This document shows positions 30,297 through 47,646 of a stretch of DNA of 64,000 bases, piece after piece. The stretch is from an uncultured Muribaculaceae bacterium (GTDB lineage Bacteria > Bacteroidota > Bacteroidia > Bacteroidales > UBA932). Position 1 is the first letter of the stretch. Every line of letters starts with the position of its first letter. The position numbers and the translations under genes are program-made. The notes under the pieces are model-generated. The model was not told where the DNA came from. It worked only from the letters and a program-made list of their open reading frames with translations, and did no database searches. The stretch covers positions 248 through 64,247 of the forward strand of contig CAZKVW010000004.1 in the NCBI GenBank assembly GCA_964556285.1. The letters run 5' to 3'.

Positions 30297-33200
30297 TTGA
30301 TGACACGATTTCACCTGATAAGGACACTGGCGGCTGCCGCGCTGCTGTCATTGGCGTGCGTGCGCCTCGCAGCCCAGAGCCAGCTTGTCACAGTTGAGTT
30401 CCGTGACACTCCTCTATCGGAGGCGCTGCAACAGATTGAGAGCAAGTCGGGGCTCTCGCTTATCTATGACTCCGGCTCGTTTGACCCGTCCCGCAAGGTC
30501 ACCGCAAGCTTTGTTGACGTGCCCGTGCCCGAGGCTCTCAAACGCTTGTTCGGTGACGGCTATGAGGTTGCGTTACGGGGCAGCATGGCGGTCATCTGGC
30601 GCAAGGGGCAGCCAGAGCCCGCACCGGCCGCGCAGCCAGTGCCGAAGACCTCGCCCCAGCCGTCCGACGGGAGATTTACCGTGACCGGGACGGTGTATGA
30701 CGAGAACGGGGAAACGCTCATCGGAGCCTCAATTATAGACTCCAGCACTTCTGATGGCGCGATTACCGACCTGGACGGCCGTTTTTCGCTGTCCGGGGTG
30801 TCGGAGGGGGATGTGCTCAGCTGCGAGTTCATAGGATACAGCATCCGGCGTTCCGTGGCATCGGCTAGTTCCCCGGTCATCAATTTCCAGTTGTTCCCGA
30901 CAGCTAATGTGCTGGATGAGGTGGTCGTCGTCGGTTACGGCGTGCAGCGCAAGGAAAGCGTCGTCGGGGCGATCACGGCCGTCAAAGGGGATGCCCTCGT
31001 CGAGAGCGGCTCGTCCAACATCACCAGCGCGATAGCGGGCAAGCTCTCCGGCGTGATGACCATACAGACCAGCGGCCAGCCGGGGCAGAATGACGCCGAG
31101 ATCCTCGTCAGGGGAGTGTCCAGCTTCAACAATTCCAGCCCTCTCGTGCTCGTGGACGGGGTAGAGAGGGATTTCGCGTCAATAGACCCCAATGAGGTTG
31201 CGGACATCTCCGTCCTCAAGGATGCCTCGGCGACGGCCGTGTTCGGCGCCAAGGGGGCGAACGGAGTGATAATAGTCTCCACCAAGAGCGGGCAGGAGGG
31301 CCGTCCCAAGATGGACCTGTCATTCTCCACGGGACTGTCTGATCCCATCAACATGGCCAGGCATGTGGACGCGTACACCACCATGAACACATTGAATGTC
31401 GCTATGATGAATGACCAGAACTTCACCGCCCTGGTCTCCGATGAGGAGCTGCAGGAGTACCGGCACCCGTCTTCGAGGCTCAATTCGCTCCGCTATCCGG
31501 ATGTGGACTGGCTGGGGGAGCTGACCCGGGACTTCGCCCGCACTTACAACGCCAATTTCAACATTTCCGGAGGCACCAAGTTCGTCAAGTATTTCGCTTC
31601 GGTGGGGTACACCCACGAGGGATCCATATTCAAGAGCTTCAGCGACGGCAAGGTCAACTCCTCGTACTCGTATGACAGGGTCAATTTCCGCACTAATTTC
31701 GACTTCAATGTCACGCGCAGCACCCAGGTGTCGTTCAAGCTCGGGGGCAATGTCGGCATCAAGAACAAGCCTGTCTCCACAGACGGGGACGAGGGCATGT
31801 GGAAATACATCTTCGGCAGCTCCTCCACAAAGTACCCCATGTACTATCCGGCCTGGGTGCTGGAGGAAGTCCCCGATACGGATTATCCGGACGCGCACTC
31901 GTCCAGGCTCGAGAGCGAGGCTGACCAGACGACAGGCAACCCTTACTACCAGCTGATGAAAGGCAGCTTCATCCAGCTGACAGACACCAAGATATTCTCC
32001 GACATCATAGCCAAGCAGGGGCTGGGCTTCATCACTGACGGCCTGTCATTGCAGGGCAAGGTGTCGCTCAGCACATACTACAAGTACAGCACCCTGACCA
32101 CCTCCTACAACCGCCCGAGCTGGGTCCTCAATTTTGACAAGATCGGATCCGGCGAGAACCCTTGGAGCCGCACCAACACGGACGGGTTCTATTATGTGGA
32201 GCTGCCCATGTACACCTCGGCGGACAACACTTTGCAGGGCGGCTACTACCTGGACTTGTATTATGACCTGTCGCTCAATTATGACAGGACATTCGGCAAT
32301 CACACTGTGACGGGTCTCTTCCTCTTCAACAGGCAGGAGCAGGACAAGGGGTCTGACTTCCCTTATTACAATGAGGCCCTCGTCGGGCGTGCCACCTGGG
32401 ACTATGCCCATAAGTATCTGGCCGAAGTCAACATAGGCTACACCGGCTCGGAGAGGTTCTCGCCCAAGAACAGGTTTGGGCTTTTCCCGGCGGGGGCTCT
32501 CGGATGGGTCGTATCGGAGGAGAAGTTTTTCGCGCCGCTCAAGCCTTGGTTCAGCAAGCTTAAGCTGCGTTTCTCTGAGGGGCTGGTCGGCAGCGACTAC
32601 GCCAACAACCGCTGGCTCTACGTCAGTGAATATTCCAAGGACTCTAACGGCTACATCAAGGAGGACAGCTCCGCCAACCTGTATGTCCAGTGGGAGGAGG
32701 CTCTCAAGCGTGACTTGGGCATTGAGATGGGATTTTTTGGCAACGAGCTCACCGTCAATGTGGATCTCTTTGACGAGCACCGTGACAAGATGCTCATGTC
32801 CGTCTCCAACAACACTCCGATATGGGTGGGCAACAGTTCCAAGGAACTCAACAAGGGCAAGGTCAAGAAGCATGGCCTCGAGGTGGAGGCTGACTGGACG
32901 CGTCGCATCGGCACGGACATGCGCCTGAGGCTCGGAGGCAACTTCTCGTTCAACGAGAACCGCATCCTGGCCTACGATGACGCGCCGTATTCCCTTGAGC
33001 ACCAGAAGAAAGTCGGCACACCGCTCGGCTCCCAGACCAGCGGGGCGTACCTGATTGACGGGGAGTACCTGACCTCCGTTGATGACATCCACTCCAATTT
33101 CCTGCCTGTCAGCGTGAGCAATGTGGTTGTAGGGGACTACAAGTTTCTGGACTACACCTCGGACGGCATCATAGACAAGGATGACCTCACGAGGATGAAA

Positions 33201-33740
33201 GGCTCCCTGTACCCGCCGGTCTCTTATGCCCTTAAAGCCGGATTCTCGTGGAAAGGCCTGGATGTCAATGTCCTCTTCCAAGGCTATGCCGGCAAGTATG
33301 TGGTGTTTGACCAGATGTACGAATGGGAGTTCTACAAGGGCAACTGGCGATTGCACACATCTTCGGCGGACTATTGGTCTCCTGCCAACACGGACGGGAC
33401 TCACGCCACGGTGCACTACTCGGCCTCGTCATTCGCCAATATGGCATGGTCGGGATACGGCGAGTCCTCCACCACCGGAGGATATTCCGGCAAGCTGCTC
33501 GGGCATTCCTGGAGGAACGCTGACTTCCTGCGTCTCAAGGAGCTGAACATCAGCTACAACTGGAAGACCCCCGGCATGCGCAAGATGATGGGGGTGGATG
33601 CTGTGAGGCTCTATCTGACGGGCAACAACCTGCTGACATTCACGGGGCTGTTGGAGGGCGACCCGGAGCAGAAATATCTCGTGTGGGGCGAATACCCCCA
33701 GATGAGGACAGTCAAGCTTGGCTGCCAGCTGACATTCTGA
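30297..33740 (+). CDS. SusC/RagA TonB-dependent transporter with N-terminal signalling (STN-like) domain
   Basis: N-terminal VEFRDTPLSEALQQIE extension, LDEVVVVGYGVQRK, SVLKDASATAVFGAKGANGVI plug motif, terminal aromatic F. Confidence 0.95.
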   Translation: MMTRFHLIRTLAAAALLSLACVRLAAQSQLVTVEFRDTPLSEALQQIESKSGLSLIYDSGSFDPSRKVTASFVDVPVPEALKRLFGDGYEVALRGSMAVIWRKGQPEPAPAAQPVPKTSPQPSDGRFTVTGTVYDENGETLIGASIIDSSTSDGAITDLDGRFSLSGVSEGDVLSCEFIGYSIRRSVASASSPVINFQLFPTANVLDEVVVVGYGVQRKESVVGAITAVKGDALVESGSSNITSAIAGKLSGVMTIQTSGQPGQNDAEILVRGVSSFNNSSPLVLVDGVERDFASIDPNEVADISVLKDASATAVFGAKGANGVIIVSTKSGQEGRPKMDLSFSTGLSDPINMARHVDAYTTMNTLNVAMMNDQNFTALVSDEELQEYRHPSSRLNSLRYPDVDWLGELTRDFARTYNANFNISGGTKFVKYFASVGYTHEGSIFKSFSDGKVNSSYSYDRVNFRTNFDFNVTRSTQVSFKLGGNVGIKNKPVSTDGDEGMWKYIFGSSSTKYPMYYPAWVLEEVPDTDYPDAHSSRLESEADQTTGNPYYQLMKGSFIQLTDTKIFSDIIAKQGLGFITDGLSLQGKVSLSTYYKYSTLTTSYNRPSWVLNFDKIGSGENPWSRTNTDGFYYVELPMYTSADNTLQGGYYLDLYYDLSLNYDRTFGNHTVTGLFLFNRQEQDKGSDFPYYNEALVGRATWDYAHKYLAEVNIGYTGSERFSPKNRFGLFPAGALGWVVSEEKFFAPLKPWFSKLKLRFSEGLVGSDYANNRWLYVSEYSKDSNGYIKEDSSANLYVQWEEALKRDLGIEMGFFGNELTVNVDLFDEHRDKMLMSVSNNTPIWVGNSSKELNKGKVKKHGLEVEADWTRRIGTDMRLRLGGNFSFNENRILAYDDAPYSLEHQKKVGTPLGSQTSGAYLIDGEYLTSVDDIHSNFLPVSVSNVVVGDYKFLDYTSDGIIDKDDLTRMKGSLYPPVSYALKAGFSWKGLDVNVLFQGYAGKYVVFDQMYEWEFYKGNWRLHTSSADYWSPANTDGTHATVHYSASSFANMAWSGYGESSTTGGYSGKLLGHSWRNADFLRLKELNISYNWKTPGMRKMMGVDAVRLYLTGNNLLTFTGLLEGDPEQKYLVWGEYPQMRTVKLGCQLTF

Positions 33741-33757
33741 CGATGGAGGAAAAATTC

Positions 33758-35608
33758 ATGAAGAAGACCGCATTATATTTAGCGCTTGCGCTGGCCCTCG
33801 GCTCCGTGTGCCTTACGGGATGCCTCAATGATTATCTGGACAAGGCTCCGGACGCGGGGCTGTCGGAGGATGAGGTGTTCACCAAGTACGCCAATTTCAA
33901 GAGCTATTTCTTCTCGGTGTATGGCGGGGCCAGCTTTAACATCCGCTGCCATTATCCGCTGCACTGGTGCATGAACAGCCAGAAATGCACTCTGGAGGAG
34001 CTGACTGACATGTGCGACAAGAGCCGCATCCAGCGCATCCAGTCCATCAAGCAGGGCACCGGCTCGGACGCGATATGGCTCATCGGCTATATGGAGGGCG
34101 ACTCCAACTATCCCAACAACGCCAAAGTGCCCAACACCTGGAAGTCCATCCGCGTGTGCAACAACGCCATCGAAAAGGCGTCCATGATACGGGACTGCAC
34201 CGAGGAGGAGCGCAATGACCTGATTGGGCAGGCGTATTTCGTCAGGGCGTTCTGCCATTTTGAGCTGTTCAGGCTCTACGGGTCGCTGCCCTATGTGGAC
34301 AAGGTGCTGGGGGCCGAGGACGAGTGGGACTTGACCCCGCTGGACGACTATGAGTTCCTCAAACGCTGCGCCGAGGACTATTATACGGCTTACGAGTATT
34401 TCAACGAGGCAGGGCTGGTGCGCAGGGACCCCTCTTCCGGGGCTGGCAACCTGTCTGACGCCAATCAGGACAAGCCCAACGGTGTGGCGGCCCTGGCGAT
34501 GAGGGGGCGTGTGCTCCTGTACGCCGCCAGCCCGCTCAACAACCCCTCCGGCGATGTCTCCCGCTGGGAGGATGCCGCAGAGGCCAACGCCCTGGCCCTT
34601 AATGTGGCTCTGGGCAAGGGCTATGTGCTGCTCTCCCAGGGCAACTACGCCCGCAACTTCTACGGCAATCGTTACACCAACGAGCAGATATGGGCGTATT
34701 CGACGAGCAGCACGACCAATTACAATGCCGCCACGGTACAGTCTTTTGTTGGCTATCCTTTCTCCAACAATGCGTTCAGCGCCTCCCAGTGCCCCACGCA
34801 GAATTTCGTGGACAAGTTTGAGACTCTGGACGGCTATGCCCTCAACACGGAGGAGCAACGCGCCGTGGCAGAGGCGGCAGGCTCCTACAACGAGCAGAAC
34901 CCCTATATCAACCGTGACCCCCGATTTGAGAATGCGGTCATTTACAACCAGTGCACTTTCCAGGGATACACTCCGGCTTCGCTGTACCTCAACGAGGACG
35001 GGTCCAAGCCTTCGGGATCTCTGCTGACCCTGCCCAACGGGGCTTCGGACGGGGTGACGGAGACATTCTATTACGAGCGCAAACGCACCGGGGCGCTGTC
35101 CAACAAGGGCAACCAGAATGTCGTCCTGACCGACCCCATCATCCGTCTCGCCGAGGTGTATCTCAACTACGCCGAGGCCGCGAATGAGGCATGGGGACCC
35201 GACGGCAAGGCCCCCTCTGCGACCTTGACCTCGCTGGAGGCGGTAAATGTGATCAGGGCCAGGGTGGGAATGCCTGCGGTGCGTGACGAGTACACCGTGT
35301 CCAAGGACACTTTCCGCGACCGCATCAAGAATGAGCGCACTGTGGAGCTGTGCTTTGAGGGCAACCATTACTGGTGCGACATCCGTCGCTGGAAAGACGC
35401 GCCCGAGATAGGCCGCTCTACGCTCTACGGCATGCGGGCCACCAAGACTGCGGTGTCGGAGCAGTATCCGACGGGATTCCGCTATGAGCGTTTCGCGCTG
35501 CCTGCCAGCCGCCAGATAGGCTGGAAGAATGACGGGATGTACTGGTTCCGCTTCCAGAACAGCGACCTGCTCAAAATGAAGAACTACACTCCAAAGATGG
35601 ACTGGTAA
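33758..35608 (+). CDS. SusD/RagB lipoprotein
   Basis: Lipobox LTG-C-LNDYLDK; GQAYFVRAFCHFEL, DPRF, RLAEVYLNYAEA, NERTVELCFEG..WCDIRRW. Confidence 0.93.
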   Translation: MKKTALYLALALALGSVCLTGCLNDYLDKAPDAGLSEDEVFTKYANFKSYFFSVYGGASFNIRCHYPLHWCMNSQKCTLEELTDMCDKSRIQRIQSIKQGTGSDAIWLIGYMEGDSNYPNNAKVPNTWKSIRVCNNAIEKASMIRDCTEEERNDLIGQAYFVRAFCHFELFRLYGSLPYVDKVLGAEDEWDLTPLDDYEFLKRCAEDYYTAYEYFNEAGLVRRDPSSGAGNLSDANQDKPNGVAALAMRGRVLLYAASPLNNPSGDVSRWEDAAEANALALNVALGKGYVLLSQGNYARNFYGNRYTNEQIWAYSTSSTTNYNAATVQSFVGYPFSNNAFSASQCPTQNFVDKFETLDGYALNTEEQRAVAEAAGSYNEQNPYINRDPRFENAVIYNQCTFQGYTPASLYLNEDGSKPSGSLLTLPNGASDGVTETFYYERKRTGALSNKGNQNVVLTDPIIRLAEVYLNYAEAANEAWGPDGKAPSATLTSLEAVNVIRARVGMPAVRDEYTVSKDTFRDRIKNERTVELCFEGNHYWCDIRRWKDAPEIGRSTLYGMRATKTAVSEQYPTGFRYERFALPASRQIGWKNDGMYWFRFQNSDLLKMKNYTPKMDW

Positions 35609-35623
35609 CGGCATGATGAGGAT

Positions 35624-38600
35624 ATGATGACAAAGGCTATTAATACACTTGTATGCGCGGCGTTCACATCCCTTTGCATGTTGGCGTTCGCGCTGCCTGC
35701 GGCGGCGCAGGGACAGGCTGCGGGGGAGCGGTCCGCCATACGCTTTGCCGTGGTTGACAGCGACGGATCCCCTCTGCCCGGGGCGCAGGTGACGGTCGGA
35801 GAGGGGCTGGCCCACTATGAGAGCTATGAGGACGGCTCCGTCAGCGTGACCTGCTCTCCGAGGGAATATGTGAGCGTCTCCAAGGACGGGTACAAGAGCG
35901 TGCGTCTGCGCGCTGATGTACTCGCCGACACCGGGACTGCGGTGCTCGTTGCGGAGATGATGTTTGCAGGGGAGGGTGATGACGTGCAGCTGCCGTTCAA
36001 GACTGAGAAGAGGCGCTGGTCTCTCGGCTCTACGGTGACCGTTAGCGGGGATGAGCTTGCGAGATATTCCTCCGTGGACATCAGGAACGCGCTGACCGGG
36101 GTCATTCCCGGAGTCGAGGTGCGCGAGAACTACGGCCAGGTGGGCGTCAGCCCGCTGGAGCACACCGGACAGTACGGCGCGACCGCAGCCATGTCGGTCA
36201 CTTCGCGCGGGCGTTCCCTCATGTATATGGTGGATGACGTGCCTGTGCAGATCAACGAAATGCCGCTCGCCCCCGAGCAGATAGAGTCCGTAACCGTCAT
36301 CCGGGACGGGCTGGAGAAGACCCTGTACGGGCCGACTGCGGCGGACGGCATCATCTCCATCAAGACCAAGAAAGGCTCTTACAATGACCGCTATCTCAAC
36401 GTGTCCGTGGAGAGCGGGGTCAACACTGTGGACAGGATGCCCAAGTACGCCAATGCGGCACAATATGCGCAGCTCAACAACATAGCCCGCAACAACAGCG
36501 GCCTCTCCATGCTCTACAGCCGCAGCGACGTGGCCGCCTATGCGCTTGGCGACCCGGACAGCAAGACCCATCCGGCAGTGGATTTCAGGTCGATGCTGCT
36601 CAAAAACACCATGATGTACGACCGCGAGAGCGTGTCCTCAGGCGGCGGCAATGATGTGGTCAAGTACTACGCCCACCTCGGGCATACGGGGCAGGATGAC
36701 ATCTATGACATGGGGCCCGCGTCGGGATACAACCATGTCAACCTGAACGGCAACCTCGACATCAGGCTCAACCGCTTTATCGGGGCGCAGTTCGGCATTC
36801 TCTCCTCCATTGGCGTGCGCAAGTCCAACAACTACGGCTACGGCACTCTCAACGCCACGGAGCTGCCCTCCATTCTGGATGACATCAACACCATCCCGCC
36901 GCTCTCGTTCCCCATCTATGCGGACAATTCCGATGACCTCGAGACCCCGTGGTATGCTGTCACTTCGCAGTACACGCAGAATCCGGTAGCCAACATCCTT
37001 GAGAACGGCTCCTATACCGAGACCATACGGGGTGCGATGTTCAACATCAAGCTGGACGTGGACTTGCCGTTCGTGCTCAAGGGGCTCAAATCCACGACAT
37101 ACGCCTCTTACGCGTCCACCAACCTCGTGCGACTTGGCACGAGCGAGGACTATGCGGCGTACATTCTCACGGAGGGCTATGACGCTGACGGCAATGCGGT
37201 CGTGACCCCGGTGCAGAGCGCGAGCCACACGGTACGTCAGTCAAGCTCCAAGTCAAGGCTGCTGGACTACTACTCCAACCGCTTCTATCTGGTCGAAAAG
37301 TTGGACTGGTCCAAGACGGTGGGGGAGCATGATTTCAGCATCGGCGCGGACTACATGATCACCAAACGCAGCCAGAAGTTCATCTCCGAGCACCGCAGAG
37401 AAATCAATTTCGGCTTGGACGCGTCCTACGCCTACGCCGGCAAGTATCTCGCGAGCCTGGCTCTCAATGAGCACGGCACCTACTCCCTGCTGGACTCCTG
37501 GTCATTCTCGCCCGCCGTGGGGCTGGGATGGATAGTGTCCAATGAGGACTTTATGAGCGGCTCGGCAGCGATAGACTTCCTCAAGCTCAGGGTGCAGGGC
37601 AGCCTGCTGCGCTACGACTCCCTGACCAGCGCCAACCGTGACACGGACAACTATTCCTGGAACAGCAACGGGCAGCGTTTCGGCCCGTACACCACTGGCC
37701 AGTGGTTCGGCAGCACCACAGGCTCCAGTGTCAACCGCACTTACGCCTCCATGCTCGGCAACCCCGACCTGCATCTGGAGACCCGCAAGGAGATTTCCGG
37801 CGGGGTTGACCTGAGGGCGTTCGGAGGGCGGCTGGATGTCTCCGTGACCGGGTACAACTTTGTGCGTGACGGCATCATCACCCAGATGTCCAATGTCGTG
37901 CCGCTGCTTGCCGGCACATCCACCGGCTCCCTGTACATGAACTGGGACAAGTACTCATACTCCGGCCTGGAAATCAGCGCGGGCTGGAAAGACAAGCTTG
38001 GGCCTGTGGACTGGAGCGTGAGCGGCTGGGTCAGTGCGCAGCGTTCCAAGATCCTCAAGATTGACGAGCTGGACTATGCGGAGGATTACCGCTCGCGCGT
38101 GGGCAAGTCGGTGTCCGCCATCTGGGGGCTCAAATACCTTGGGCAATTCAGCTCGGACGAGGAGACCCTTGCCATTCCGCAGCTCTATGATGACAATCTC
38201 AAGGCCGGCGACTTCAAATATCAGGACATGAACGGGGACGGCTATGTGGATGCCTCTGACCAGTGTGTCATCGGCGACAGCATGCCCAAGCTCATCGGGG
38301 CGGTCAACGCCAAGCTGGGGTGGAATGGATTTGACCTGGCTCTGACCGGGACATTCAGGGCGTTCTATGACGCGCAGCTCACCAACAGCTGGTTCTGGAA
38401 CGGATGGGGCGACTCCAATTACTCTTACTATGTGATGAAGAATCTCGGCAAGGCTGACGCCCCGAGGCTCACCTACAACAAGGTCAACAACAACTACCAG
38501 CTCTCGGAGCGGTGGATCCGGGACGGGTCTTTCTTCAAGCTGCAGTGCGTCGAGATTGGATACAGCCTCCCGCTGTCGTCCCTGCGCGCCGGCGGGCTTA

Positions 38601-38746
38601 TCCGTCAGGCGAGGATATGGTGCCGTGCCAACAACCTGCTGACTTTGAGTGGGATAGAGGATGTTGATCCGGAAGCGCTCAGCTCCGGGATTACCAACTA
38701 TCCCCTGATGCGTTCGTTTACTGGCGGGGTCAAGTTGACATTCTAA
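35624..38746 (+). CDS. Second SusC/RagA transporter (no signalling domain)
   Basis: Plug YGPTAADGIISIKTK, barrel motifs LGNPDL, GDFKYQDMNGDG, IEDVDPE, YPLMRSFTGGVKLTF. Confidence 0.9.
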   Translation: MMTKAINTLVCAAFTSLCMLAFALPAAAQGQAAGERSAIRFAVVDSDGSPLPGAQVTVGEGLAHYESYEDGSVSVTCSPREYVSVSKDGYKSVRLRADVLADTGTAVLVAEMMFAGEGDDVQLPFKTEKRRWSLGSTVTVSGDELARYSSVDIRNALTGVIPGVEVRENYGQVGVSPLEHTGQYGATAAMSVTSRGRSLMYMVDDVPVQINEMPLAPEQIESVTVIRDGLEKTLYGPTAADGIISIKTKKGSYNDRYLNVSVESGVNTVDRMPKYANAAQYAQLNNIARNNSGLSMLYSRSDVAAYALGDPDSKTHPAVDFRSMLLKNTMMYDRESVSSGGGNDVVKYYAHLGHTGQDDIYDMGPASGYNHVNLNGNLDIRLNRFIGAQFGILSSIGVRKSNNYGYGTLNATELPSILDDINTIPPLSFPIYADNSDDLETPWYAVTSQYTQNPVANILENGSYTETIRGAMFNIKLDVDLPFVLKGLKSTTYASYASTNLVRLGTSEDYAAYILTEGYDADGNAVVTPVQSASHTVRQSSSKSRLLDYYSNRFYLVEKLDWSKTVGEHDFSIGADYMITKRSQKFISEHRREINFGLDASYAYAGKYLASLALNEHGTYSLLDSWSFSPAVGLGWIVSNEDFMSGSAAIDFLKLRVQGSLLRYDSLTSANRDTDNYSWNSNGQRFGPYTTGQWFGSTTGSSVNRTYASMLGNPDLHLETRKEISGGVDLRAFGGRLDVSVTGYNFVRDGIITQMSNVVPLLAGTSTGSLYMNWDKYSYSGLEISAGWKDKLGPVDWSVSGWVSAQRSKILKIDELDYAEDYRSRVGKSVSAIWGLKYLGQFSSDEETLAIPQLYDDNLKAGDFKYQDMNGDGYVDASDQCVIGDSMPKLIGAVNAKLGWNGFDLALTGTFRAFYDAQLTNSWFWNGWGDSNYSYYVMKNLGKADAPRLTYNKVNNNYQLSERWIRDGSFFKLQCVEIGYSLPLSSLRAGGLIRQARIWCRANNLLTLSGIEDVDPEALSSGITNYPLMRSFTGGVKLTF

Positions 38747-38763
38747 AAAGGATTGCGCAAAAT

Positions 38764-40584
38764 ATGAAGCAGACTATATACAATACGGTTTCATTGGCGG
38801 CCGCCCTGCTCGCGGCGGCCTCGTGCAGCGACTTCCTGGACCCGTACCCCAGCGCCATCAGAGATGAGGAGTATGTGCTGTCCAGCCCGCTGACGATGCA
38901 GGGGCTGATAGGCCAGTGCTACGAGTGGATGCCGTCCAACTACAACACCAACGAGGGGGCGTACATGGACTGCCTGACGGACAATGCCGTGATGACATCC
39001 AGGACTGACGCCATTTCCCGCATGGCCACTGGCGTCAACTCGACGGCAAGCTACCCGTTCCAGACTTTCTGGACCCGGGACTATGAGGGCATATACAACA
39101 CCAATCTCTTCCTCCAGAACGGCAACGGGCGCAATGTGCGTTACATGCTTGACACTCGGCTCGACTCTCTCCTGCGGGATATGCTGTGGGGGGAGGCGTA
39201 TGCTTTGAGGGCATGGTTTGAGTGGGACCTGCTGCAGAAGTTCGGCGGGCGCGGCCTGGACGGGCAGCTGCTCGGGTTCCCGATACTCACTGAGCCTGTC
39301 AAGGTATGGAAGATGAGCGCGGAGGAGATGGGGGATATCGATTTTGTACGCGCACCTTACGATGACTGCGTGGCCCAGATACTTGCCGACTGCGACTCGG
39401 CTTACCGCTACCTGCCCATAGCGCACAGGGACTTCCTCGTTGACAACACCGAAGACCTCACTGTGCTGGGGTCGCGCAACTGGGGACGGATAGACGGCAT
39501 CACTACGGTGGCCATCAAGGCTCTGGTGTACCAGACTTGGGCTAGCCCCCGCTTCAACCCGGACGGTGACGTGACGCGCTGGGAGAATGCCGCCAAGTGC
39601 GCCAAGGAGGTCATGGACTTCAAGGAGAATGTGGACGGCTCGGTGTCTGGGGGCTTTGACCGCCGCAAGGCCATTAACTGGTTTGACCCCAACAGCCCTG
39701 AGATTGTGTTCGGCTCGCGCTACAACTCCTCCTCGGAGACCATGGAGAAGATGTTCTATCCAGGGGGCTTCCAAGGCGACGGCGCCGTGGGCGCGACACA
39801 GGACTTTGTGGACGCGTTCGGGATGGCGGACGGATACCCTGCCGGGCAGTCGCCGGCGTATGCTTACGATGAGCAGGACCCCTATGTCAATCGAGACCCG
39901 CGCCTGTACAGCAACATATTCTACAATGGACGCACCATCACCACAGGGGCTTCTGGCAGGACATACACATTCGAGTGCTGGACAGGGGGCAAGGATGAGG
40001 CCGAAGTCTCCAGTGACAACACCCGCACGGGCTATTACATCAAGAAATTTGTCTATAGCGGCCTCAACTGGTCAGAGAGCAGCGTGAGCCGCATGCCGCA
40101 CAGCAAGTTCTTTATCCGCTGGACTCACATGGCCCTGTGCTTTGCCGAGGCCGCCAATCATATCGCCGGCCCCACAGGGAATGTTGAGGGCTTGAGCGCC
40201 AAGGAGGTGATATCCTGGGTACGCAGCCGCGAGACTTATGACGGCAGCCCCGGCATCACGGATGACCAGTACCTGGAACAAGTCTCGCTAATGGGCGAGA
40301 AGGCCTTTGACGAGTTCCTGCGCAATGAGCGCCGCATCGAGACGGCGTTTGAGGGGACATGGTTCTACGACCTGCGCCGCTGGGGCACGACTCTCGAAGG
40401 CCTCAACGGGACGCTGTACAGGCCGACGATTACCCGCCGCGCCAACGGCACATATGTGTACGACTACTCCACTCCTGTGGAGGACAGGGAGTTCACCTCC
40501 GCTTACCTGCCCATACCGTACAAGGAGATGGTCAATGTCTCCGGCCTGGTACAGAATGAGGGATGGGAGAGCTGGACAAGATAA
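38764..40584 (+). CDS. Second SusD/RagB lipoprotein
   Basis: Lipobox AAS-C-SDFLDP; GEAYALRAWF, RDPRL, TGYYIKK, FAEAAN, RNERRIETAFEG..YDLRRW, QNEGW. Confidence 0.93.
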   Translation: MKQTIYNTVSLAAALLAAASCSDFLDPYPSAIRDEEYVLSSPLTMQGLIGQCYEWMPSNYNTNEGAYMDCLTDNAVMTSRTDAISRMATGVNSTASYPFQTFWTRDYEGIYNTNLFLQNGNGRNVRYMLDTRLDSLLRDMLWGEAYALRAWFEWDLLQKFGGRGLDGQLLGFPILTEPVKVWKMSAEEMGDIDFVRAPYDDCVAQILADCDSAYRYLPIAHRDFLVDNTEDLTVLGSRNWGRIDGITTVAIKALVYQTWASPRFNPDGDVTRWENAAKCAKEVMDFKENVDGSVSGGFDRRKAINWFDPNSPEIVFGSRYNSSSETMEKMFYPGGFQGDGAVGATQDFVDAFGMADGYPAGQSPAYAYDEQDPYVNRDPRLYSNIFYNGRTITTGASGRTYTFECWTGGKDEAEVSSDNTRTGYYIKKFVYSGLNWSESSVSRMPHSKFFIRWTHMALCFAEAANHIAGPTGNVEGLSAKEVISWVRSRETYDGSPGITDDQYLEQVSLMGEKAFDEFLRNERRIETAFEGTWFYDLRRWGTTLEGLNGTLYRPTITRRANGTYVYDYSTPVEDREFTSAYLPIPYKEMVNVSGLVQNEGWESWTR

Positions 40585-40599
40585 ATGCAACGAAGCGAC

Positions 40600-41601
40600 A
40601 TGATCAAGACATTCAAGATAATCGGGGCCTTTGCGGCTGCAGTGTGCGCCGTGTCCTCGTGCTATGACGACTATGTAGGGGACTATTCGGAAGTGGCCTG
40701 CGGATTTGCCAACCAGACGGATGTGCGCAGCTTGATAGTGGGCGAGGGCATGCGGTTTTCCACAGGGGTCGCTCTTGGCGGGACCATCGACAATGGTGAG
40801 GACAGGTACATATCCTTTGAGACGGACTATTCGCTTGTCAACAGCAGCACCTTGTCTGCGCTCACGACCCACACATTCTCCTACATCACTAACATCATGA
40901 AGAATGTGCCCTCTATCGAGGCCATGCCGGCGGACATGTACAGTTTTGAGACTGGCAGCGGCCGCCCGGGGCAGGCTCTGATAGCCAAGGGGACTCACCT
41001 CGGGCAGATAGGCATACAGATTGACTCGGCCCGCTTCCTTGCGGACGAGGGCAACCTCTACCCCAAATATGTCATCCCCATTACCCTGACGGACGGGCAC
41101 GGCACCGGTCTCATATCCGGACGGGAGTCCACCGTCATAGGGGTGCATTACGAAAATATGCTCTTCGGCAACTGGTATCACGGGGGATATGCGGAGGTCA
41201 CGGACGCTTCAGGCGTCGCGCTCCGTACTGACGTATACGCCACGACCGTGCCTCAGGACGAGAGCCGGGTGTGGTCGCTCACCACGGTCGCACCGTTCAG
41301 CCTGACCGCCAACGGGGTCGGGGCGGGCAACAGCGGCTCGACAGCCCAGATGAAGCTCACGCTCAACTCCGATGACAGCATCACCATTGAGCCGGTCTCC
41401 GGCGCCTCTTATACTGTTGAGCCGGACGGCGAGAGCCGCTTTGTGCGCAGCCGCTTGCTGCAGGACCGCAAGATAGTCCTCAATTACAAGTACACCTCCG
41501 GCGGGGAGGTGTATCACGCACATGACACATTGTCATTCCGCAACCGCATCCGTGACGGTGTGAATGAATGGCAGGACGAGAACACTTCACATTATGAATA
41601 G
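40600..41601 (+). CDS. PUL accessory lipoprotein (DUF1735-type N-terminal domain)
   Basis: Lipobox VSS-C-YDD; AMPADMYS and KYVIPITL recall DUF1735; C-terminal GNWY...RDGV..W domain; position after susD. Confidence 0.65.
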   Translation: MIKTFKIIGAFAAAVCAVSSCYDDYVGDYSEVACGFANQTDVRSLIVGEGMRFSTGVALGGTIDNGEDRYISFETDYSLVNSSTLSALTTHTFSYITNIMKNVPSIEAMPADMYSFETGSGRPGQALIAKGTHLGQIGIQIDSARFLADEGNLYPKYVIPITLTDGHGTGLISGRESTVIGVHYENMLFGNWYHGGYAEVTDASGVALRTDVYATTVPQDESRVWSLTTVAPFSLTANGVGAGNSGSTAQMKLTLNSDDSITIEPVSGASYTVEPDGESRFVRSRLLQDRKIVLNYKYTSGGEVYHAHDTLSFRNRIRDGVNEWQDENTSHYE

Positions 41602-43084
41602 GATGTTTGGCACTATATTGGCCCTATGCGCGGCCATCTGCTCCGTCCATGCTTGCTCGGGCGGGGAAACTTTCGTCATACCTGACGTCTATCCGGACGA
41701 CGGGCCGTCGCAGGGCGGGGACACCCTCGCTGTGAGAGACCCCTATGAGGTGGATTGCAAAAAGACGGTGTCCACTTCCACATGGACGACCTACAAGGCC
41801 TATACCGTGGACTGCATAGAGGGATTCTCCCCGTCATCAGACCCCGACACAGACCAGTATGGGGGGTGGCAGAGGACTATAGGCAACACGGACGGCTATT
41901 TCCGTGTGCAGCAGCATGACGGGAGGTGGTGGCTAGTGGATCCGGACGGCAACCTCTTCTTGAGCAAGGCTGTGGCCGTGTTCTCTCCTGGAGGTTCTGA
42001 ACGCCAGGCGGCGAACATCGCCTCCAAATTCGGCAGCAACTACAGGTGGGCGCAGACCGAGACCACATTCCTGAGGGAGCAGGGCTTCAATTCGCTCGGA
42101 GCCTGGTCATCCGTGGATTTGGTGCGGACGCTCCCTGAACCCATGCCGTATACCGTGATCCTCAGCCCTATGGGGAGCTACAACGGGGCTCTCAAGGCGT
42201 CCGGCGCGGAGAGTGACGGGTACGCAGCCGCCGGATGGGAGGGGTATCCCTATGATTTCGCCATGGTGTTTGACGAGCAGTTTGACACTTATGTGGAGTC
42301 CGTGATGAGCAATGCCGACAAGTACAAGACGGACAAATACCTGATAGGATACTTCATCGACAACGAGATACCGTGGAAAGACTATGCGCTGGAGAATTGC
42401 CTGACCAAATGGCCTTCCACACACATCAACCACCAGAAGGCGCAGGCATGGCTCGATGCCCGCAAGGGCAAGAGCGGCTGTACCATCGACGATGCCACGG
42501 CTGCGGACAAAAAGGCGTTCATTGCGTACTGCTATGAGACCTACCTCTCCAAGGTGGTCACCGCGCTCAAAAAGTATGACCCCAACCACCTTGTCCTCGG
42601 CGACAGGTTCAACCAGTGGAATTACGAACTGCAGAACGAGGAGATGTTCAAGGTCGCCGGGCAGTGGTGCGATGTCATCTCTGTCAACCATTACCAGAAA
42701 TGGCAGCCGACTCTGGCGGACATGCGCAATTGGGAGAGCTGGAGCGGCAGGCCGTTCATCGTGACTGAGTTCTATGTCAAGGGGCTGGACTCCGGCATGG
42801 GCAACACCACCGGGGCCGGCTGGGTGGTCAAGACCCAGCATGAGAGGGGGCTCTTCTACCAGAACTTTGTCAATGAGCTGCTCAAGAGCGGGGTGTGCGT
42901 CGGCTGGCACTGGTTCACTTATATGGACAACGACCCGACCAACCCTGACTCGGACTCGTCCAACAGGGATTCCAACAAGGGCATAGTGCAGTGGGACTGC
43001 ACACGCTATGACGCCCTGATTGAGCAGATGAAGCAGATAAATGACTGCACCTACAACCTTGCCCGCTTCTATGACGCGCAGTAA
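41594..43084 (+). CDS. Clan GH-A glycoside hydrolase lipoprotein (GH50/GH42-like, often labelled agarase); substrate unknown
   Basis: Lipobox VHA-C; GYFRV...GRWWLVDPDG, GFNSLGAWS, GYFIDNEIPW (acid/base Glu), DPNHLVLGDRF, PFIVTEF (nucleophile Glu), VGWHWF. Confidence 0.75.
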   Translation: MNRMFGTILALCAAICSVHACSGGETFVIPDVYPDDGPSQGGDTLAVRDPYEVDCKKTVSTSTWTTYKAYTVDCIEGFSPSSDPDTDQYGGWQRTIGNTDGYFRVQQHDGRWWLVDPDGNLFLSKAVAVFSPGGSERQAANIASKFGSNYRWAQTETTFLREQGFNSLGAWSSVDLVRTLPEPMPYTVILSPMGSYNGALKASGAESDGYAAAGWEGYPYDFAMVFDEQFDTYVESVMSNADKYKTDKYLIGYFIDNEIPWKDYALENCLTKWPSTHINHQKAQAWLDARKGKSGCTIDDATAADKKAFIAYCYETYLSKVVTALKKYDPNHLVLGDRFNQWNYELQNEEMFKVAGQWCDVISVNHYQKWQPTLADMRNWESWSGRPFIVTEFYVKGLDSGMGNTTGAGWVVKTQHERGLFYQNFVNELLKSGVCVGWHWFTYMDNDPTNPDSDSSNRDSNKGIVQWDCTRYDALIEQMKQINDCTYNLARFYDAQ

Positions 43085-43113: not shown

Positions 43114-44478
43114 ATGAGACTTGCGATACACAAAATTATGCTGCCGCTGGCTGCTGCCGCTGCCTTTGCAGCTTTCTGCGCTTGCGAGGAAGATTCGCAG
43201 CCTGTGCGCTACGCCGCGCCGCAGGTGAGCTTTACCATGCCGTCGTCCGATGCCGTCTCCGCAGCCGTGGGAGACACGGTCGAGTTCTCGGCTGCGGCAG
43301 TGTCAGGGGACAAGGTGTCCGTGTCTTGGTACATTGACGGGACGCTTGTGTCGAGCGCGTGGAGCTTCGGCTATGTCTTTGAGGCTCCCGGGAGCTATAC
43401 AGTCCTTTTTGACGCGCACAACGGGGCCGGCTCCGTCACGCGGGAGTACAGCGTTGAGGTGTCAGACCGCCTGGACATCAGCCTGTCGGTGGGGGACTCC
43501 ACATCTGTGCACCGGCTTCAGCTGGACCTGCTCAAGGTGGCTGCCATAGTAAATCTCGGTTCGGGAGTGATGCACCAGTGGAGCGTGGACGGCGAGGTGC
43601 AGGGACACGAGGCTTTCTTCGGCTCGTTCGCCCTGTCGGAGGCCCGCTCGTATGAGGTCAGCTACAGGGGCAGCAATGACGCGGGTGTCTTTGAGAGGAC
43701 ATTCACTGTGATTGCGGACGAGCGTCCGCTTGAGATATCATTCTCTGTCACAGATGAGTCCATAGCGATACTCTCCAACAACAGCATATCCATCACGGCT
43801 AATGTGCTGTATGGCGGCAGCGGCCTCAGCCAGAGCTGGTATGTGGACGGGGAGATGGCCGGTGACGGGAGCACATTCGTGCGGTATTTCAACTTGGCGG
43901 GGGACTATGTCATCCGCTATGAGGCGGTCAACGGCAAGGGGGAGACGGTCTCCAGGACATGGAATGTGAGCGTGACAGCCTCTGGCGACCTGATGGACGA
44001 CTTTGAGGATTCTGCGATAGGCTCATGGTTCAATCTCGGGGAGAACAGCCCGGGCATCCATCTTGTGACCAACCCCCTGCCAGAGGGGCTCAACACCAGT
44101 GCGCAGGTGCTGTGCGACCAGGTCGCCGGATCCGGCAGCACTTCGGGGTATTTCACTCTCAAGGCTTCAAAGCTGCTCTCTGACAAGGGTTTTGACGTGT
44201 CCAAGTATTCGGGGATACGCTTCAAAGTCTATCTCGGGAACAACAAGTATTATCCGAGGGTTGACTACGGAGGGACGAAATACGCGCCCGTGTCTGCGCC
44301 CAAGTTCCAGAACGAGTGGGAGACGCTGGAGTACAAGCTGCCTGTCGGCAAGTTTGACAACGGCAAGAACATCGTGTTCCGCATGATGTACAATGAGAGC
44401 GGTTCCAACATCTCGGGATACGACGAGGCGACCAACAACAGGACTGTGTACATAGATGACATTGAATTCTTTGAGTAA
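43114..44478 (+). CDS. Surface lipoprotein: three Ig/PKD-like repeats plus C-terminal putative glycan-binding domain
   Basis: Lipobox FCA-C-EED; three ~85-aa repeats with W.[IV]DG and Y.V...A.N motifs; C-terminal domain ending VYIDDIEF. Confidence 0.7.
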   Translation: MRLAIHKIMLPLAAAAAFAAFCACEEDSQPVRYAAPQVSFTMPSSDAVSAAVGDTVEFSAAAVSGDKVSVSWYIDGTLVSSAWSFGYVFEAPGSYTVLFDAHNGAGSVTREYSVEVSDRLDISLSVGDSTSVHRLQLDLLKVAAIVNLGSGVMHQWSVDGEVQGHEAFFGSFALSEARSYEVSYRGSNDAGVFERTFTVIADERPLEISFSVTDESIAILSNNSISITANVLYGGSGLSQSWYVDGEMAGDGSTFVRYFNLAGDYVIRYEAVNGKGETVSRTWNVSVTASGDLMDDFEDSAIGSWFNLGENSPGIHLVTNPLPEGLNTSAQVLCDQVAGSGSTSGYFTLKASKLLSDKGFDVSKYSGIRFKVYLGNNKYYPRVDYGGTKYAPVSAPKFQNEWETLEYKLPVGKFDNGKNIVFRMMYNESGSNISGYDEATNNRTVYIDDIEFFE

Positions 44479-44479
44479 T

Positions 44480-45940
44480 ATGAAAGACTTTTGCAGGCTG
44501 GCCGCTGCTGCGGCTCTGCTGACATGTCTGGCTGCGGCGTGCTCCGACAAAGGGGAGCCGCAGGCCGCCCCCGCCGCTCCCAAGGTGGAGTTCACGATAG
44601 AGGATGACTTCCTGTCAGTGCCGGTGGACAGCTCGGTGCGATTTGTGGCCAACATCATTGAGGGGACAGACCTCTCCACAGGATGGTGGGTGGATGATGT
44701 CAAGATAGCTGAGACTCCCGGGGTGACATGGACATTCTCGCAGCTGGGCACATTTGTTGTACGCTTTGAGGCTGCCAATTCACTCGGAACTGTGGAAAAG
44801 TCTTATTCGGTCACGGTAAACGGCATACCCTTGCAGGTGGAGTACTCCGACCCTTCGGAAGAGGTCTCTGCTGTGGTGGGGACTGCGCTGGAGCTGTCCG
44901 TCACCGTCACCGGAGGCGACAAGTCCGTGCAGCACCTGTGGACGCTGGACGGGGAGAGCGTGTCCGACGGGACGGCATTTTCGTATACATTCTCCGAAGC
45001 GGAGGCTGGCGTGCATAGCGTAGCATACTATGGAGTCAACAGCGACGGCATGAGCGCGTCCCACGCGTGGACGGTGAACGTGTCCGACTTGCCGCTGGAG
45101 TTCTCGTTCATCCCTTCCGGGACGGATGTGAGTGCGACAGAGGGGGATGCCGTGGAGTTCTCCGCGACCGTCCTGCACGGCTCCAAAGGGCTGTCATGCA
45201 GCTGGACGCTGGACGGGACGGAGGTGTCTTCCGGCACTTCGTACAGCTATGAGTGCACCGCTACAGGCACTTTCACTATTGCGTTCAGCGCGTCCAATGC
45301 CGCAGGGGAGAGCGTCTCCAGGAGCTGGACTCTGAACGTCACGGAGCACGTGGAACAGACATACATGTTCCTCGACGCGGAGAATCTGTCCGCAGTGCCG
45401 TCATTTGTCACCGGCAACAATGTGGGCGGGGTATCTGTCGTCCAGCTTGTCACCAACCCGTATGTCACTGCCGCCAATTCCGGCACGAGGGCGTTTATCG
45501 ATGACCTCCGTCCGACCTCCTGGGCCAATTCGGGATATGTCCAGTTCATGACATCGTCCGTGCCCGGCTCGGAGCTTGCGAAGTACACTGCCATAAGGGT
45601 CAAGGTGTGGATTGGGACGAGCGAGTATGTGCCTCACATGACTCTCGTGCGGTCCGGCAACGAATCCAGTCTGCCGACCAAGGTCAACGGGGAGGACTTC
45701 TATCCAAGTGCCTCTACTCAGGCCAATTGGGAGAGCCTGATACGCAGGGACGACTGGAATGTGCTGGAGTACAGCGTCGTGACCGGCAATTATCCCAAGG
45801 CTGCGGCGACTTCGCTCGCTGACATCGACCAGTTCCAGTTCAGGATGACCGTGGGCTGGTCTAACGGCAGCGCCTCCAAGGATGCCTCGTCCACCAATTT
45901 GAGGTATGTGTACTTCGATGATGTCGAATTTGTGGAATAG
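44480..45940 (+). CDS. Surface lipoprotein paralog: three Ig/PKD-like repeats plus the same C-terminal domain
   Basis: Lipobox AAA-C-SDK from ATG 44480; three repeats with W..D[DG]; C-terminal domain ending VYFDDVEF. Confidence 0.7.
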   Translation: MKDFCRLAAAAALLTCLAAACSDKGEPQAAPAAPKVEFTIEDDFLSVPVDSSVRFVANIIEGTDLSTGWWVDDVKIAETPGVTWTFSQLGTFVVRFEAANSLGTVEKSYSVTVNGIPLQVEYSDPSEEVSAVVGTALELSVTVTGGDKSVQHLWTLDGESVSDGTAFSYTFSEAEAGVHSVAYYGVNSDGMSASHAWTVNVSDLPLEFSFIPSGTDVSATEGDAVEFSATVLHGSKGLSCSWTLDGTEVSSGTSYSYECTATGTFTIAFSASNAAGESVSRSWTLNVTEHVEQTYMFLDAENLSAVPSFVTGNNVGGVSVVQLVTNPYVTAANSGTRAFIDDLRPTSWANSGYVQFMTSSVPGSELAKYTAIRVKVWIGTSEYVPHMTLVRSGNESSLPTKVNGEDFYPSASTQANWESLIRRDDWNVLEYSVVTGNYPKAAATSLADIDQFQFRMTVGWSNGSASKDASSTNLRYVYFDDVEFVE

Positions 45941-45950
45941 TCTCTCCTGC

Positions 45951-46012
45951 TGTCATTCTGAACGAAGTGAAGAATCTCGAGGTGAAGAATCTTAAAACAA
46001 AGTGAAGAATCT
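45951..46012 (+). repeat. REP-like palindromic element with two extra partial copies
   Basis: TGTCATTCTGAACGAAGTGAAGAATCT (45951-45977; ATTCT/AGAAT stem, AC-GAA-GT inner hairpin), then GTGAAGAATCT again at 45982-45992 and 46002-46012. Confidence 0.75.
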
Positions 46013-46044
46013 GTGAAATGATTATGTTAAAACTACATACTATT

Positions 46045-46203
46045 ATGACAATGAAAAGATTACAAAATCTCGTAGGGGGGGGTGAATACGAGACCCCCTG
46101 GCTTGAGCTGGCTGATTTCGGCCCAGGCGCGTCTGTCAATTGTGTCAGCACAGGCACGGAGTCGTTTGAGAGCGACGACGAGGAGTATTTATTGCTTGGT
46201 TGA
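46045..46203 (+). CDS. Small ~52-aa peptide with YxxPxL motif, Cys and acidic tail; contains a G8 tract
   Basis: MTMKRLQNLVGGGEYETPWLELADFGPGASVNCVSTGTESFESDDEEYLLLG; AT-rich upstream region; stop 12 nt before the next gene; alternative ATGs at 46018, 46024 and 46051. Confidence 0.6.
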   Translation: MTMKRLQNLVGGGEYETPWLELADFGPGASVNCVSTGTESFESDDEEYLLLG

Positions 46204-46215
46204 GGAGGATGTGCC

Positions 46216-47646
46216 ATGAAGACTGTTAATACCACTATGGCCGCTCTTGCGCTGGCAGCGCTTGCTCTTGCGGCTTGCAGCAAAGAGAACGAAGCCGGGC
46301 AAGGCTTCTCATCAGACGGCATCCAGCGTTATCCCGTCAGCTTTGAGGCTGTGGGAGAGGGAGGCGGAGTCAAGACGACGCTCGGCGAGTCACGCAGTGT
46401 CGTCTGGACTGCGGGTGACGCGATTTCCCTGCTCTATGTAAACGACGGCGCCACCGCCAACGACAAGCTGACGACCACGGCTGGAGGGGCTGCCTCCGCG
46501 ACATTCTCCGGAGATGCCGGCACGGCCACTGACGGGGTGTACTATGCCGTATATCCTTATGCCGATGGCACGAGCCTGAGCGACGGGGTGTTGAGCTACA
46601 CCGTGAGCAACGGCACACAGGCAATCGGCGCCGCGGGCTCGTTTGGCAGCGGCTACAACGTGTCTGTCGCCAAGACCAGCGGCAGCTCGCTCTACTTCCG
46701 CAACCTCAACGCTCTGGTCAAGTTCACCATCCCGGAGGAGCTGGACAACATCAAGAGGATAGACTTCTTCCCCAACGGGGCGAGCGAGTCGTTCCGTGGC
46801 ACATATTCGGTCACGCCGTCGGAAGATGGCGAGCCGGTCATCTCTTTTGCTCCAAACACTGACGCCCGTAATGTAGGCGTGGAGTACGGGGACGGCAGCG
46901 CGTGTTTCCCTGCCGGGACGTACTACTTCACCTGCCCTCCGGTGTCCCTGGCCTACGGGTTCCGCGCCAAGGTGCTGTATTCAGACGATTCTATACAGTT
47001 CGACATCTCCGGGACACCTCTCACGCTGGTGCGCAACAAGGTGTATAACATCGGCACATTCGCTTACAAGGACTCGTTTGTATACGACGACTTCGAGGAT
47101 ACCGAAGTCATTTATGGTCAGACCTCCTTGACTACAGCTGCTGGGTCTTATGGAGGGAATTCAGGGGCTCTGTCCATCGTGGCAAATCCGTACGGAGGCG
47201 AGGGGATGTCCAATACCAGCGGCAAGGTGCTTAGGGATGACATGTCTTCATCCTCAACCGGCACCTCCGGCTATGTCACTTTGACCCTCAGCCAGAGCAG
47301 GCTGCCTGGGAACGCGCGTTCCAATTTCAAGGGCATGCGCGTCAAGGTGTATCTTGGGAGTGCGGCTTATTACCCTTATTTCCAGTTTGGCAGCACGAAA
47401 TGTCTCCCCTCAAAGGTGAACGGCACTTCCATCTCGTCCGCAGATGATTATGCCGCTCTGACTCTCAAGAGCAATGATTGGAATGTTTTTGAGGTTACAT
47501 TTCCCAGCGGCTTCAGCCTAGGCAATAATGATCAAGTGCAGCTGCGCCCCTTCTCAAAGAGCGACGGCAGCAGCATAGCGGCTGGCGCAGCTTCAGACAC
47601 CAACCCCCGCGTCTGCTGGATAGACGACTGGGAGTTTACCTGGTAG
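46216..47646 (+). CDS. Fimbrillin-like (type V pilin-like) lipoprotein with C-terminal putative glycan-binding domain
   Basis: Lipobox LAA-C-SKENE; VK|TTL...VVWTAGDAI, ATFSG, YYAVYPY and LYFRNLNALVKFTI motifs recalled from Bacteroidales fimbrillins; C-terminus ends CWIDDWEF. Confidence 0.65.
   Translation: MKTVNTTMAALALAALALAACSKENEAGQGFSSDGIQRYPVSFEAVGEGGGVKTTLGESRSVVWTAGDAISLLYVNDGATANDKLTTTAGGAASATFSGDAGTATDGVYYAVYPYADGTSLSDGVLSYTVSNGTQAIGAAGSFGSGYNVSVAKTSGSSLYFRNLNALVKFTIPEELDNIKRIDFFPNGASESFRGTYSVTPSEDGEPVISFAPNTDARNVGVEYGDGSACFPAGTYYFTCPPVSLAYGFRAKVLYSDDSIQFDISGTPLTLVRNKVYNIGTFAYKDSFVYDDFEDTEVIYGQTSLTTAAGSYGGNSGALSIVANPYGGEGMSNTSGKVLRDDMSSSSTGTSGYVTLTLSQSRLPGNARSNFKGMRVKVYLGSAAYYPYFQFGSTKCLPSKVNGTSISSADDYAALTLKSNDWNVFEVTFPSGFSLGNNDQVQLRPFSKSDGSSIAAGAASDTNPRVCWIDDWEFTW

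Follow-up and report, generated by a model that had tools for sequence, protein, structure and literature searches.

Why should one polysaccharide utilisation locus (PUL) encode three consecutive lipoproteins that end in the same kind of domain, two of them on repeat stalks and the third on a domain resembling a pilin? The question is raised by a 64,000-nucleotide stretch of contig CAZKVW010000004.1 (assembly GCA_964556285.1, an uncultured Muribaculaceae bacterium; positions 248 to 64,247, here called the window), in which three lipoprotein genes (43114-47646) form the 3′ end of a plus-strand PUL, downstream of its SusC/SusD pairs (30297-40584), a gene order also found in related loci. The genes, all on the + strand, encode P1 (P0001; 43114-44478, 454 aa), P2 (P0002; 44456-45940, 494 aa), and P3 (P0003; 46216-47646, 476 aa), and lipoboxes can be read from the sequence of all three (…FCAC|EED, …LAAAC|SDK, and …LAAC|SKE, respectively). 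An earlier note on this DNA had taken the shared domain for a glycan-binding module and P3 for a pilus-tip adhesin. We favour, with moderate confidence, the explanation that all three products are binders of the surface glycan-binding protein (SGBP) type, that their shared domain is a candidate new carbohydrate-binding module (CBM) family tied to enzymes resembling glycoside hydrolase (GH) family 50, and that the pilin fold of P3 is an alternative stalk.

A shared C-terminal module with a CBM-like fold

Over their last 165-195 residues, the three lipoproteins are homologous, as the earlier note had concluded from an alignment by eye. BLASTP aligned P1 with P3 (32% identity over 207 columns, E = 4e-16) and P2 with P3 (34% over 180 columns, E = 3e-17), and matched P1 to P2 over their full length (29% over 461 columns, E = 9e-50). 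A three-way alignment of the modules, which are only 30-41% identical to one another, contains 33 invariant columns, including the previously proposed motifs NP, SGY, R.KV..G...Y.P, W...E, and TN.R....DD.EF. The boundaries drawn by eye fall inside the hidden Markov model envelopes of the module (aa 288-454 of P1, 299-494 of P2, and 284-476 of P3). Pfam and NCBIfam scans of the module returned no match, and searches of the PDB sequences, with a single sequence or with a 42-sequence profile, returned nothing significant. When 1.84 billion representative proteins were searched with a profile, 132 module clusters at 50% identity were recovered, 88 of them at E ≤ 1e-10; nearly all of the proteins are 440-490 aa long, with the module beginning near residue 285, and public homologues bear only the name “PKD domain-containing protein”.

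AlphaFold2 modelling of the P1 module with the family alignment yielded a confident beta-jelly-roll (pLDDT 95.9, pTM 0.90), in line with the CBM-like jelly roll that had been predicted and that is hereby borne out at the level of the fold. The Foldseek neighbours of the model include the laminarin-binding X584 domain (8qx6), CBM4, CBM8, CBM27, CBM29, CBM61, and the N-terminal domain of chondroitinase ABC; the CBM matches all have a probability of 1.00, and for stand-alone CBM chains the TM-scores, whichever normalisation is taken, are 0.45-0.58. X584, a recently recognised CBM from laminarin-binding multimodular proteins of marine Bacteroidota, ranked second by E-value and had the highest TM-scores of the top matches when both normalisations are considered (0.56 normalised to the query and 0.57 to the target). 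Its host proteins, too, are PUL-linked. However, it shares 18% identity with the P1 module and no sequence-level relationship, and its partner enzymes and habitat differ. Since most of the top fold matches are CBMs but no Pfam, NCBIfam, or PDB sequence was matched, the modelled module is CBM-like by fold and lies outside every described family. It is a candidate new carbohydrate-binding family, of about 130 clusters at 50% identity among the proteins searched, for which glycan binding is predicted.

Exchange of PKD and fimbrillin-like stalks

The module is preceded by three PKD-like repeats of ~85 aa in P1 (repeats aa 34-288, module aa 289-454 = 43978-44475; Pfam PKD_3, 1.6e-13) and in P2 (repeats aa 40-296, module aa 297-494 = 45344-45937; 4.1e-15). 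The six segments can be aligned around an invariant W..D...N..G, which agrees with the three-repeat Ig/PKD-like stalks described earlier for these two proteins. With a lipobox, three PKD repeats, and a C-terminal domain of the binding type, the products of genes 1 and 2 have an architecture like that of SGBP-B.

The N-terminal part of P3 is of a different kind. In an AlphaFold2 model of P3, computed with 35 relatives (pLDDT 87.7, pTM 0.80), residues 39-284 precede the module (aa 285-476 = 47068-47643) and adopt the two-domain fimbrillin, or type V pilin, fold. The top Foldseek matches of the N-terminal ~250 residues were “putative cell adhesion” structures of the FimA/Mfa superfamily from the Joint Center for Structural Genomics (4k4k, 3t2l, and 3ufi; E from 8e-8 to 7e-7); 4eps, 4rdb, 4dgu, and the Mfa3 tip pilin (5nf4) were matched as well. 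Comparison by hhalign of the P3 family with the Mfa_like_1 proteins of its own genome gave a probability of 96.4% (E = 1.2e-9). The relationship lies beyond the reach of the standard models: P3 scored 11.7 bits against Pfam Mfa_like_1, failing the cut-off of 27, only five of the 35 family members match pilin Pfam models (Mfa_like_1, FimA, or Mfa2) at E ≤ 0.01, and neither single-sequence nor profile searches of P3 against PDB sequences returned anything significant.

The lipobox cysteine (Cys21 in P3) is invariant across the 35 family members. The earlier note had also pointed to a VK|TTL site like those at which type V pilin propeptides are cleaved. Its lysine, K53 (46372-46374), is K or R in at least 90% of the family and sits in a low-pLDDT loop just after the first strand, A1 (aa 39-47), as that proposal would have it, but in the hhalign alignment it is offset by four residues from the arginine of the “TRA” motif of the Mfa_like_1 proteins. 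Since Foldseek, hhalign, and the family alignment support them, we regard the fimbrillin fold on a lipobox-bearing protein, which the earlier note had read from the sequence, and the conserved basic residue as real.

The same N-terminal domain is found elsewhere joined to leucine-rich repeat (LRR), CotH, or other C-terminal domains. The BT_0210-type LRR lipoproteins (4ecn, itself a Foldseek match) and other Bacteroidales lipoproteins with this N-domain are similar to P3 in that a related fimbrillin-like N-domain bears an unrelated C-terminal domain; they differ in that their C-termini are LRR or CotH domains and in having no link to a GH50-like gene. On a metagenome contig (L031), a GH26/GH130 mannan PUL encodes a 513-aa lipoprotein that combines this N-domain with a different, unannotated C-terminal region. 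The gene lies between GH26, GH3, and GH130 genes, near that of a canonical SGBP_B_XBD protein, with a small open reading frame (micro-ORF) upstream. From these examples, the N-domain of P3 would seem to be a generic carrier.

Of 94 non-redundant modules, PKD stalks carry 40 and the fimbrillin-like domain 35. The module begins at about residue 285 on both, and the two carriers are therefore equal in length. On the module tree, 9-10 changes between the two labels are required, and holding the fimbrillin-type rows together cost 171.7 log-likelihood units and was rejected by the approximately unbiased (AU) test (p = 2.6e-5); the groups for this test were defined with the first tree already in view. 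The domain shuffling that had been noticed in this window is thus real and recurrent, and on the evidence of the tree PKD and fimbrillin-like carriers have been exchanged repeatedly. These repeated swaps suggest that the two carriers do the same job. Both architectures, and the gene cassette described below, recur beyond this genome; a one-off shuffle in this genome was considered and rejected, both architectures being widespread.

The P1-type module forms a clade of its own that is maintained across genomes. In the six closest loci, the P1-type module (57-72% identity between species) is more conserved than its stalk (49-59%), whereas no such difference in favour of the module is seen for the P2 type. 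These patterns, together with the 30-41% identity among the paralogues, make distinct specificities of the three modules plausible, and at least as likely as the common ligand that the earlier note had proposed. The distribution of the module is patchy. Hits at E ≤ 1e-15 were obtained in two of 151 genomes of the same family, and an order-wide sample of 301 genomes contained, outside the genome under study, only distant hits (E from 1e-6 to 1e-10). This pattern fits an accessory PUL that has probably been exchanged between genomes.

Association with GH50-like enzymes

The module genes are linked to a particular group of enzymes. The gene at 41564-43084 (+ strand; likely start 41594), upstream of gene 1, encodes a GH50-like lipoprotein of clan GH-A, for which a Pfam scan was empty. 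Its closest solved relative is BpGH50 (5T3B; E = 3.8e-43), from the porphyran PUL of Bacteroides plebeius, and GH50 beta-agarases were matched at ~1e-24. The similarity to BpGH50 (~30-40% identity) concerns this neighbouring gene and not the three lipoproteins, and the companion agar enzymes of the porphyran PUL are absent here. An assignment as an agarose PUL was rejected, given the absence of those enzymes and the nature of the hosts, which are rumen, horse-gut, and human-gut bacteria. The GH50-like protein is the sole recognisable hydrolase of this PUL.

In the genome under study, the four genes for the module and the three GH50-like genes are all confined to two PULs. The second PUL (contig C9, ~23-41 kb; L008) contains, in this order, a Reg_prop/Y_Y_Y/AraC regulator, a micro-ORF, a gene for the module on the fimbrillin-like domain (a Fim-type gene, P0109), a GH50-like gene (P0157), SusC, and SusD. 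The fourth module gene, P0109, directly adjoins a GH50-like gene. Last in this order is the gene for an 812-aa protein with a weak, sub-threshold match to Fib_succ_major, and the third GH50-like gene of the genome lies at C9:23104-24354.

A search for related loci with a three-row module alignment yielded P1-type loci only. Among them, the core order SusC-SusD-DUF1735-GH50-like-PKD/module-PKD/module was found in Alistipes timonensis JC136, in other Alistipes, and in rumen and horse-gut Bacteroidales metagenome-assembled genomes; the named type strain A. timonensis DSM 25383 has the core cassette. The full cassette, including the micro-ORF and the Fim-type gene, is kept at 74% identity (L001/L002) and at 37% identity (L030), and the rumen and Alistipes versions are without gene 3. 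A second GH50-like gene is frequent in the related core cassettes, as is a ~615-aa GH2. Neighbouring genes in the related loci encode GH2, GH3, GH109, DUF2961, and UxuA proteins, which, as a speculation, point to a galactose- or uronate-bearing glycan. The earlier note knew of no described PUL with this domain shuffling. Searches on fimbrillin-like SGBPs in PULs likewise found none in the literature covered, but the cassette itself is also kept in Alistipes and in Bacteroidales of the rumen and horse gut and is not peculiar to this genome.

The substrate of BpGH50 has not been demonstrated in the literature. The module is linked to the GH50-like subfamily to which this enzyme is related, and the ligand of the module could therefore help to identify the substrate of the enzyme.

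A proposed surface glycan-binding system with an alternative stalk

The favoured explanation has direct support in several results: the modules are homologous and their fold class is assigned, the types of stalk are identified, the genes stand in a PUL and are linked to GH50-like genes, and stalks have been exchanged repeatedly. The PUL would be controlled by a sigma/anti-sigma pair of the extracytoplasmic function (ECF) type, with two SusC/SusD pairs and one GH50-like enzyme at its centre. Each lipoprotein would be exported, lipidated at the lipobox cysteine, and displayed on the outer membrane, where an N-terminal stalk of ~285 residues would space the C-terminal jelly-roll module from the membrane. 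The module would capture the polysaccharide, or different epitopes of one polysaccharide, that is cut by the GH50-like enzyme and imported by SusCD. The fimbrillin fold of P3 would most likely provide an alternative lipid-anchored stalk rather than a polymerising pilin.

Such a system would have a characterised counterpart. The SGBP-B-type proteins of Bacteroides PULs (for example, that of the xyloglucan locus; Pfam PF18329, SGBP_B_XBD) are surface glycan binders. Like the lipoproteins described here, they are PUL lipoproteins encoded after SusC/SusD, with several Ig/PKD-like stalk domains and one C-terminal beta-sandwich, and paralogues can occur within a locus. In contrast to SGBP-B, the module in the window matches neither PF18329 nor any other Pfam or NCBIfam family, its binding activity is predicted from genes and models, and one paralogue has a fimbrillin fold in place of the Ig repeats. 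The type V pilin fold, which takes turns with Ig-like stalks in the lipoproteins of PULs, would thereby enter nutrient acquisition. Broader roles would have to be weighed for many gut Bacteroidales “fimbrillin-like” lipoproteins, and caution is advisable against annotating all of them as pilins.

Several observations weigh against this explanation. The fold matches of the module are weak (TM-scores of at most 0.58 and Foldseek E-values of ~1e-4 at best), and the jelly-roll fold also occurs in domains that do not bind glycans, such as the adhesin domain of Kgp and domain III of Cry toxins. The conservation of K53 resembles that of a pilin propeptide cleavage site, which a pure stalk model does not explain, and cleavage after this residue would take away the lipid anchor. 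Genuine Mfa_like_1/FimA-type pilin clusters are present on contigs C3, C55, and C21 of the same genome and are a possible source of stalk subunits. Finally, a simple stalk model does not account for the micro-ORF that accompanies every Fim-type gene.

Is P3 a pilus-tip adhesin?

The observations on K53 and on the pilin clusters count in favour of the reading of the earlier note, in which P3 would be a type V pilin precursor. Cleavage after K53 would remove the lipid together with strand A1, a stalk or anchor pilin encoded at another site would supply its C-terminal strand as the donor, and the module would thus be placed at the tip of a pilus. This alternative, which we consider unlikely, draws on the two-domain FimA/Mfa-superfamily fold with its matches to 4k4k, 3t2l, 3ufi, and Mfa3, on the profile homology to Mfa_like_1 proteins of the same genome, and on the presence of a lipobox together with an almost invariant K/R in the flexible loop that comes after A1. 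An additional C-terminal domain is, moreover, topologically possible for a tip subunit only, and there are known tip adhesins whose C-terminal head binds a ligand (bioRxiv 10.1101/2024.11.15.621889). P3 is comparable to the type V tip pilins (Mfa3 of Porphyromonas gingivalis and the Bacteroides tips, including those diversified by diversity-generating retroelements) in being a lipoprotein precursor with a pilin-fold N-terminal part, in which the first strand is followed by a conserved basic residue, and a C-terminal head of the ligand-binding type.

It differs from them in its surroundings. The genes of known tip pilins stand at the ends of operons that contain anchor and stalk genes, and their heads are C-type lectins or other domains (bioRxiv 10.1101/2024.11.15.621889), whereas gene 3 has no partner pilin genes and combines a jelly-roll head with a PUL context and an upstream micro-ORF. 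Stalk or anchor pilin genes adjoined the Fim-type genes in none of ~12 loci examined, a set that includes the window, the 74%-identical orthologue (L001/L002), the 37%-identical relative (L030), L029, L003, L028, L031, and the C9 PUL (L008). An Mfa2-type anchor (PF08842) was not detected in the genome, which is 91% complete. A genome search for Peptidase_C25 was empty, but its control was likewise silent and the result is uninformative. The evolutionary exchange of the N-domain for PKD stalks, which do not polymerise and have the same length, the failure of P3 to reach the Pfam Mfa_like_1 threshold, and the four-residue offset of K53 from the “TRA” arginine argue further against a pilin. The pilus-tip claim of the earlier note is thus left unsupported, given the lack of a stalk or anchor pilin gene in this PUL or in the related loci examined, the exchange of the carrier for a PKD stalk of the same length, and the occurrence of the N-domain with LRR, CotH, and other C-terminal domains.

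A broader form of this idea, to which we give a similarly low probability, extends to gene 3 and its ~35 relatives together: they would be PUL-encoded glycan-binding heads that are cut at the lysine and strand-exchanged onto type V pili or another partner, with the micro-ORF as a helper or regulator. If true, long-range capture of substrate by pili would be coupled to SusCD import.

Other partners and the unit upstream of gene 3

Rather than a glycan, the module could recognise some other partner, such as a protein on another cell, a peptide from host mucin, or the SusCD/GH50-like complex of this PUL, in which case the three lipoproteins would be utilisome scaffolds or adhesins. Its fold class is common to protein-binding jelly rolls (the Kgp K2 adhesin domain, 3km5; a MAM domain, 8yt7; and Cry domain III), no known CBM family was matched by sequence, and a weak, non-significant profile match to the mucin-binding domain of StcE (E = 0.3) was obtained. 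We nevertheless consider such docking or adhesion quite improbable, in view of the strict PUL context and the co-inheritance with a glycoside hydrolase family, the majority of CBMs among the top fold matches, and an architecture that copies characterised SGBP-B proteins.

Gene 3 is set apart from gene 2 by an AT-rich gap of 275 bp. The gap contains three exact copies of GTGAAGAATCT (45967-46012, + strand), spaced by 15 and 20 nt, with no other exact copy in the 64-kb window; L001, the orthologous locus at 74% identity, has none of these repeats. In the window they are followed by a conserved, acidic micro-ORF of 52 aa (46045-46203, + strand; Y-E-T-P…C-x-S-T-G…acidic tail), whose L001 orthologue is ~60% identical. 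Each Fim-type gene examined has such an acidic ORF of 45-55 aa directly upstream, and none was found upstream of PKD-type genes in the loci examined. The relatives are located at L001:6672-6836, L003:3598-3744 and 3772-3918, L008:11269-11535 (minus strand), L028:14271-14414, L029:1760-1897, L030:9536-9679, L031:5822-5989, and L032:464-610. They are without a signal peptide. Their common features are a Y-x-[ST/x]-P motif, a short hydrophobic segment, in many cases C/T-S-G, and a tail rich in acidic residues, and none matched a Pfam or NCBIfam model. A reading of the YxxP motif as that of a lasso-type peptide was rejected, no maturase gene being present nearby in any locus. A Shine-Dalgarno-like GGAGGA lies between the stop of the micro-ORF and the ATG of the Fim-type gene (46203-46215 in the window and L001:6833-6848), which suggests that the micro-ORF and gene 3 are translationally coupled. 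Such sites are unusual in Bacteroidales.

That gene 3 and the micro-ORF form an independently regulated two-gene unit, placed at the 3′ end of the PUL by chance and with a role apart from its substrate, is very improbable: the AT-rich gap and the Shine-Dalgarno-like site, the lack of gene 3 in the rumen and Alistipes cassettes, and the occurrence of the micro-ORF/Fim pair in other PUL types and alone would fit such a unit, but gene 3 shares its module with genes 1 and 2, the order PKD/module, PKD/module, micro-ORF, Fim/module persists at only 37% identity, and the fourth module gene of the genome is also Fim-type and lies beside a GH50-like gene.

Organisation of the remainder of the locus

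The head of the PUL, on the + strand throughout, is formed by a gene for an ECF-type sigma factor (28701-29216), assigned from its sequence and its position directly before a FecR gene, and by that gene, which encodes a FecR-type anti-sigma factor (29259-30233; Pfam FecR, 9.5e-17). The first SusC-like TonB-dependent transporter (30297-33740) matches Plug (7.7e-14) and CarbopepD_reg_2 (8.5e-13), with a weak, sub-threshold match to STN (3.3e-05; 24.1 bits against a cut-off of 28.4 bits), and is followed by the first SusD-like protein (33683-35608; SusD_RagB, 9e-41). The second SusC-like transporter (35624-38746) is 46-69% identical to the SusC proteins of related cassettes, its Pfam matches being weak and all below cut-off, and is paired with a second SusD-like protein (38764-40584; SusD_RagB, 1.2e-39). 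Next comes a BT_3987-like_N (DUF1735-type) lipoprotein (40585-41601; PF08522, 9.9e-07), which is present in all related loci, and beyond gene 3 rpsA begins at 47948. The longest open reading frame of gene 2, from 44456, runs into the end of gene 1 (overlap 44456-44480). Its true start is probably the ATG at 44480 (MKDF…), since this codon lies immediately past the stop of gene 1 and yields a normal lipoprotein signal (MKDFCRLAAAAALLTCLAAAC|S).

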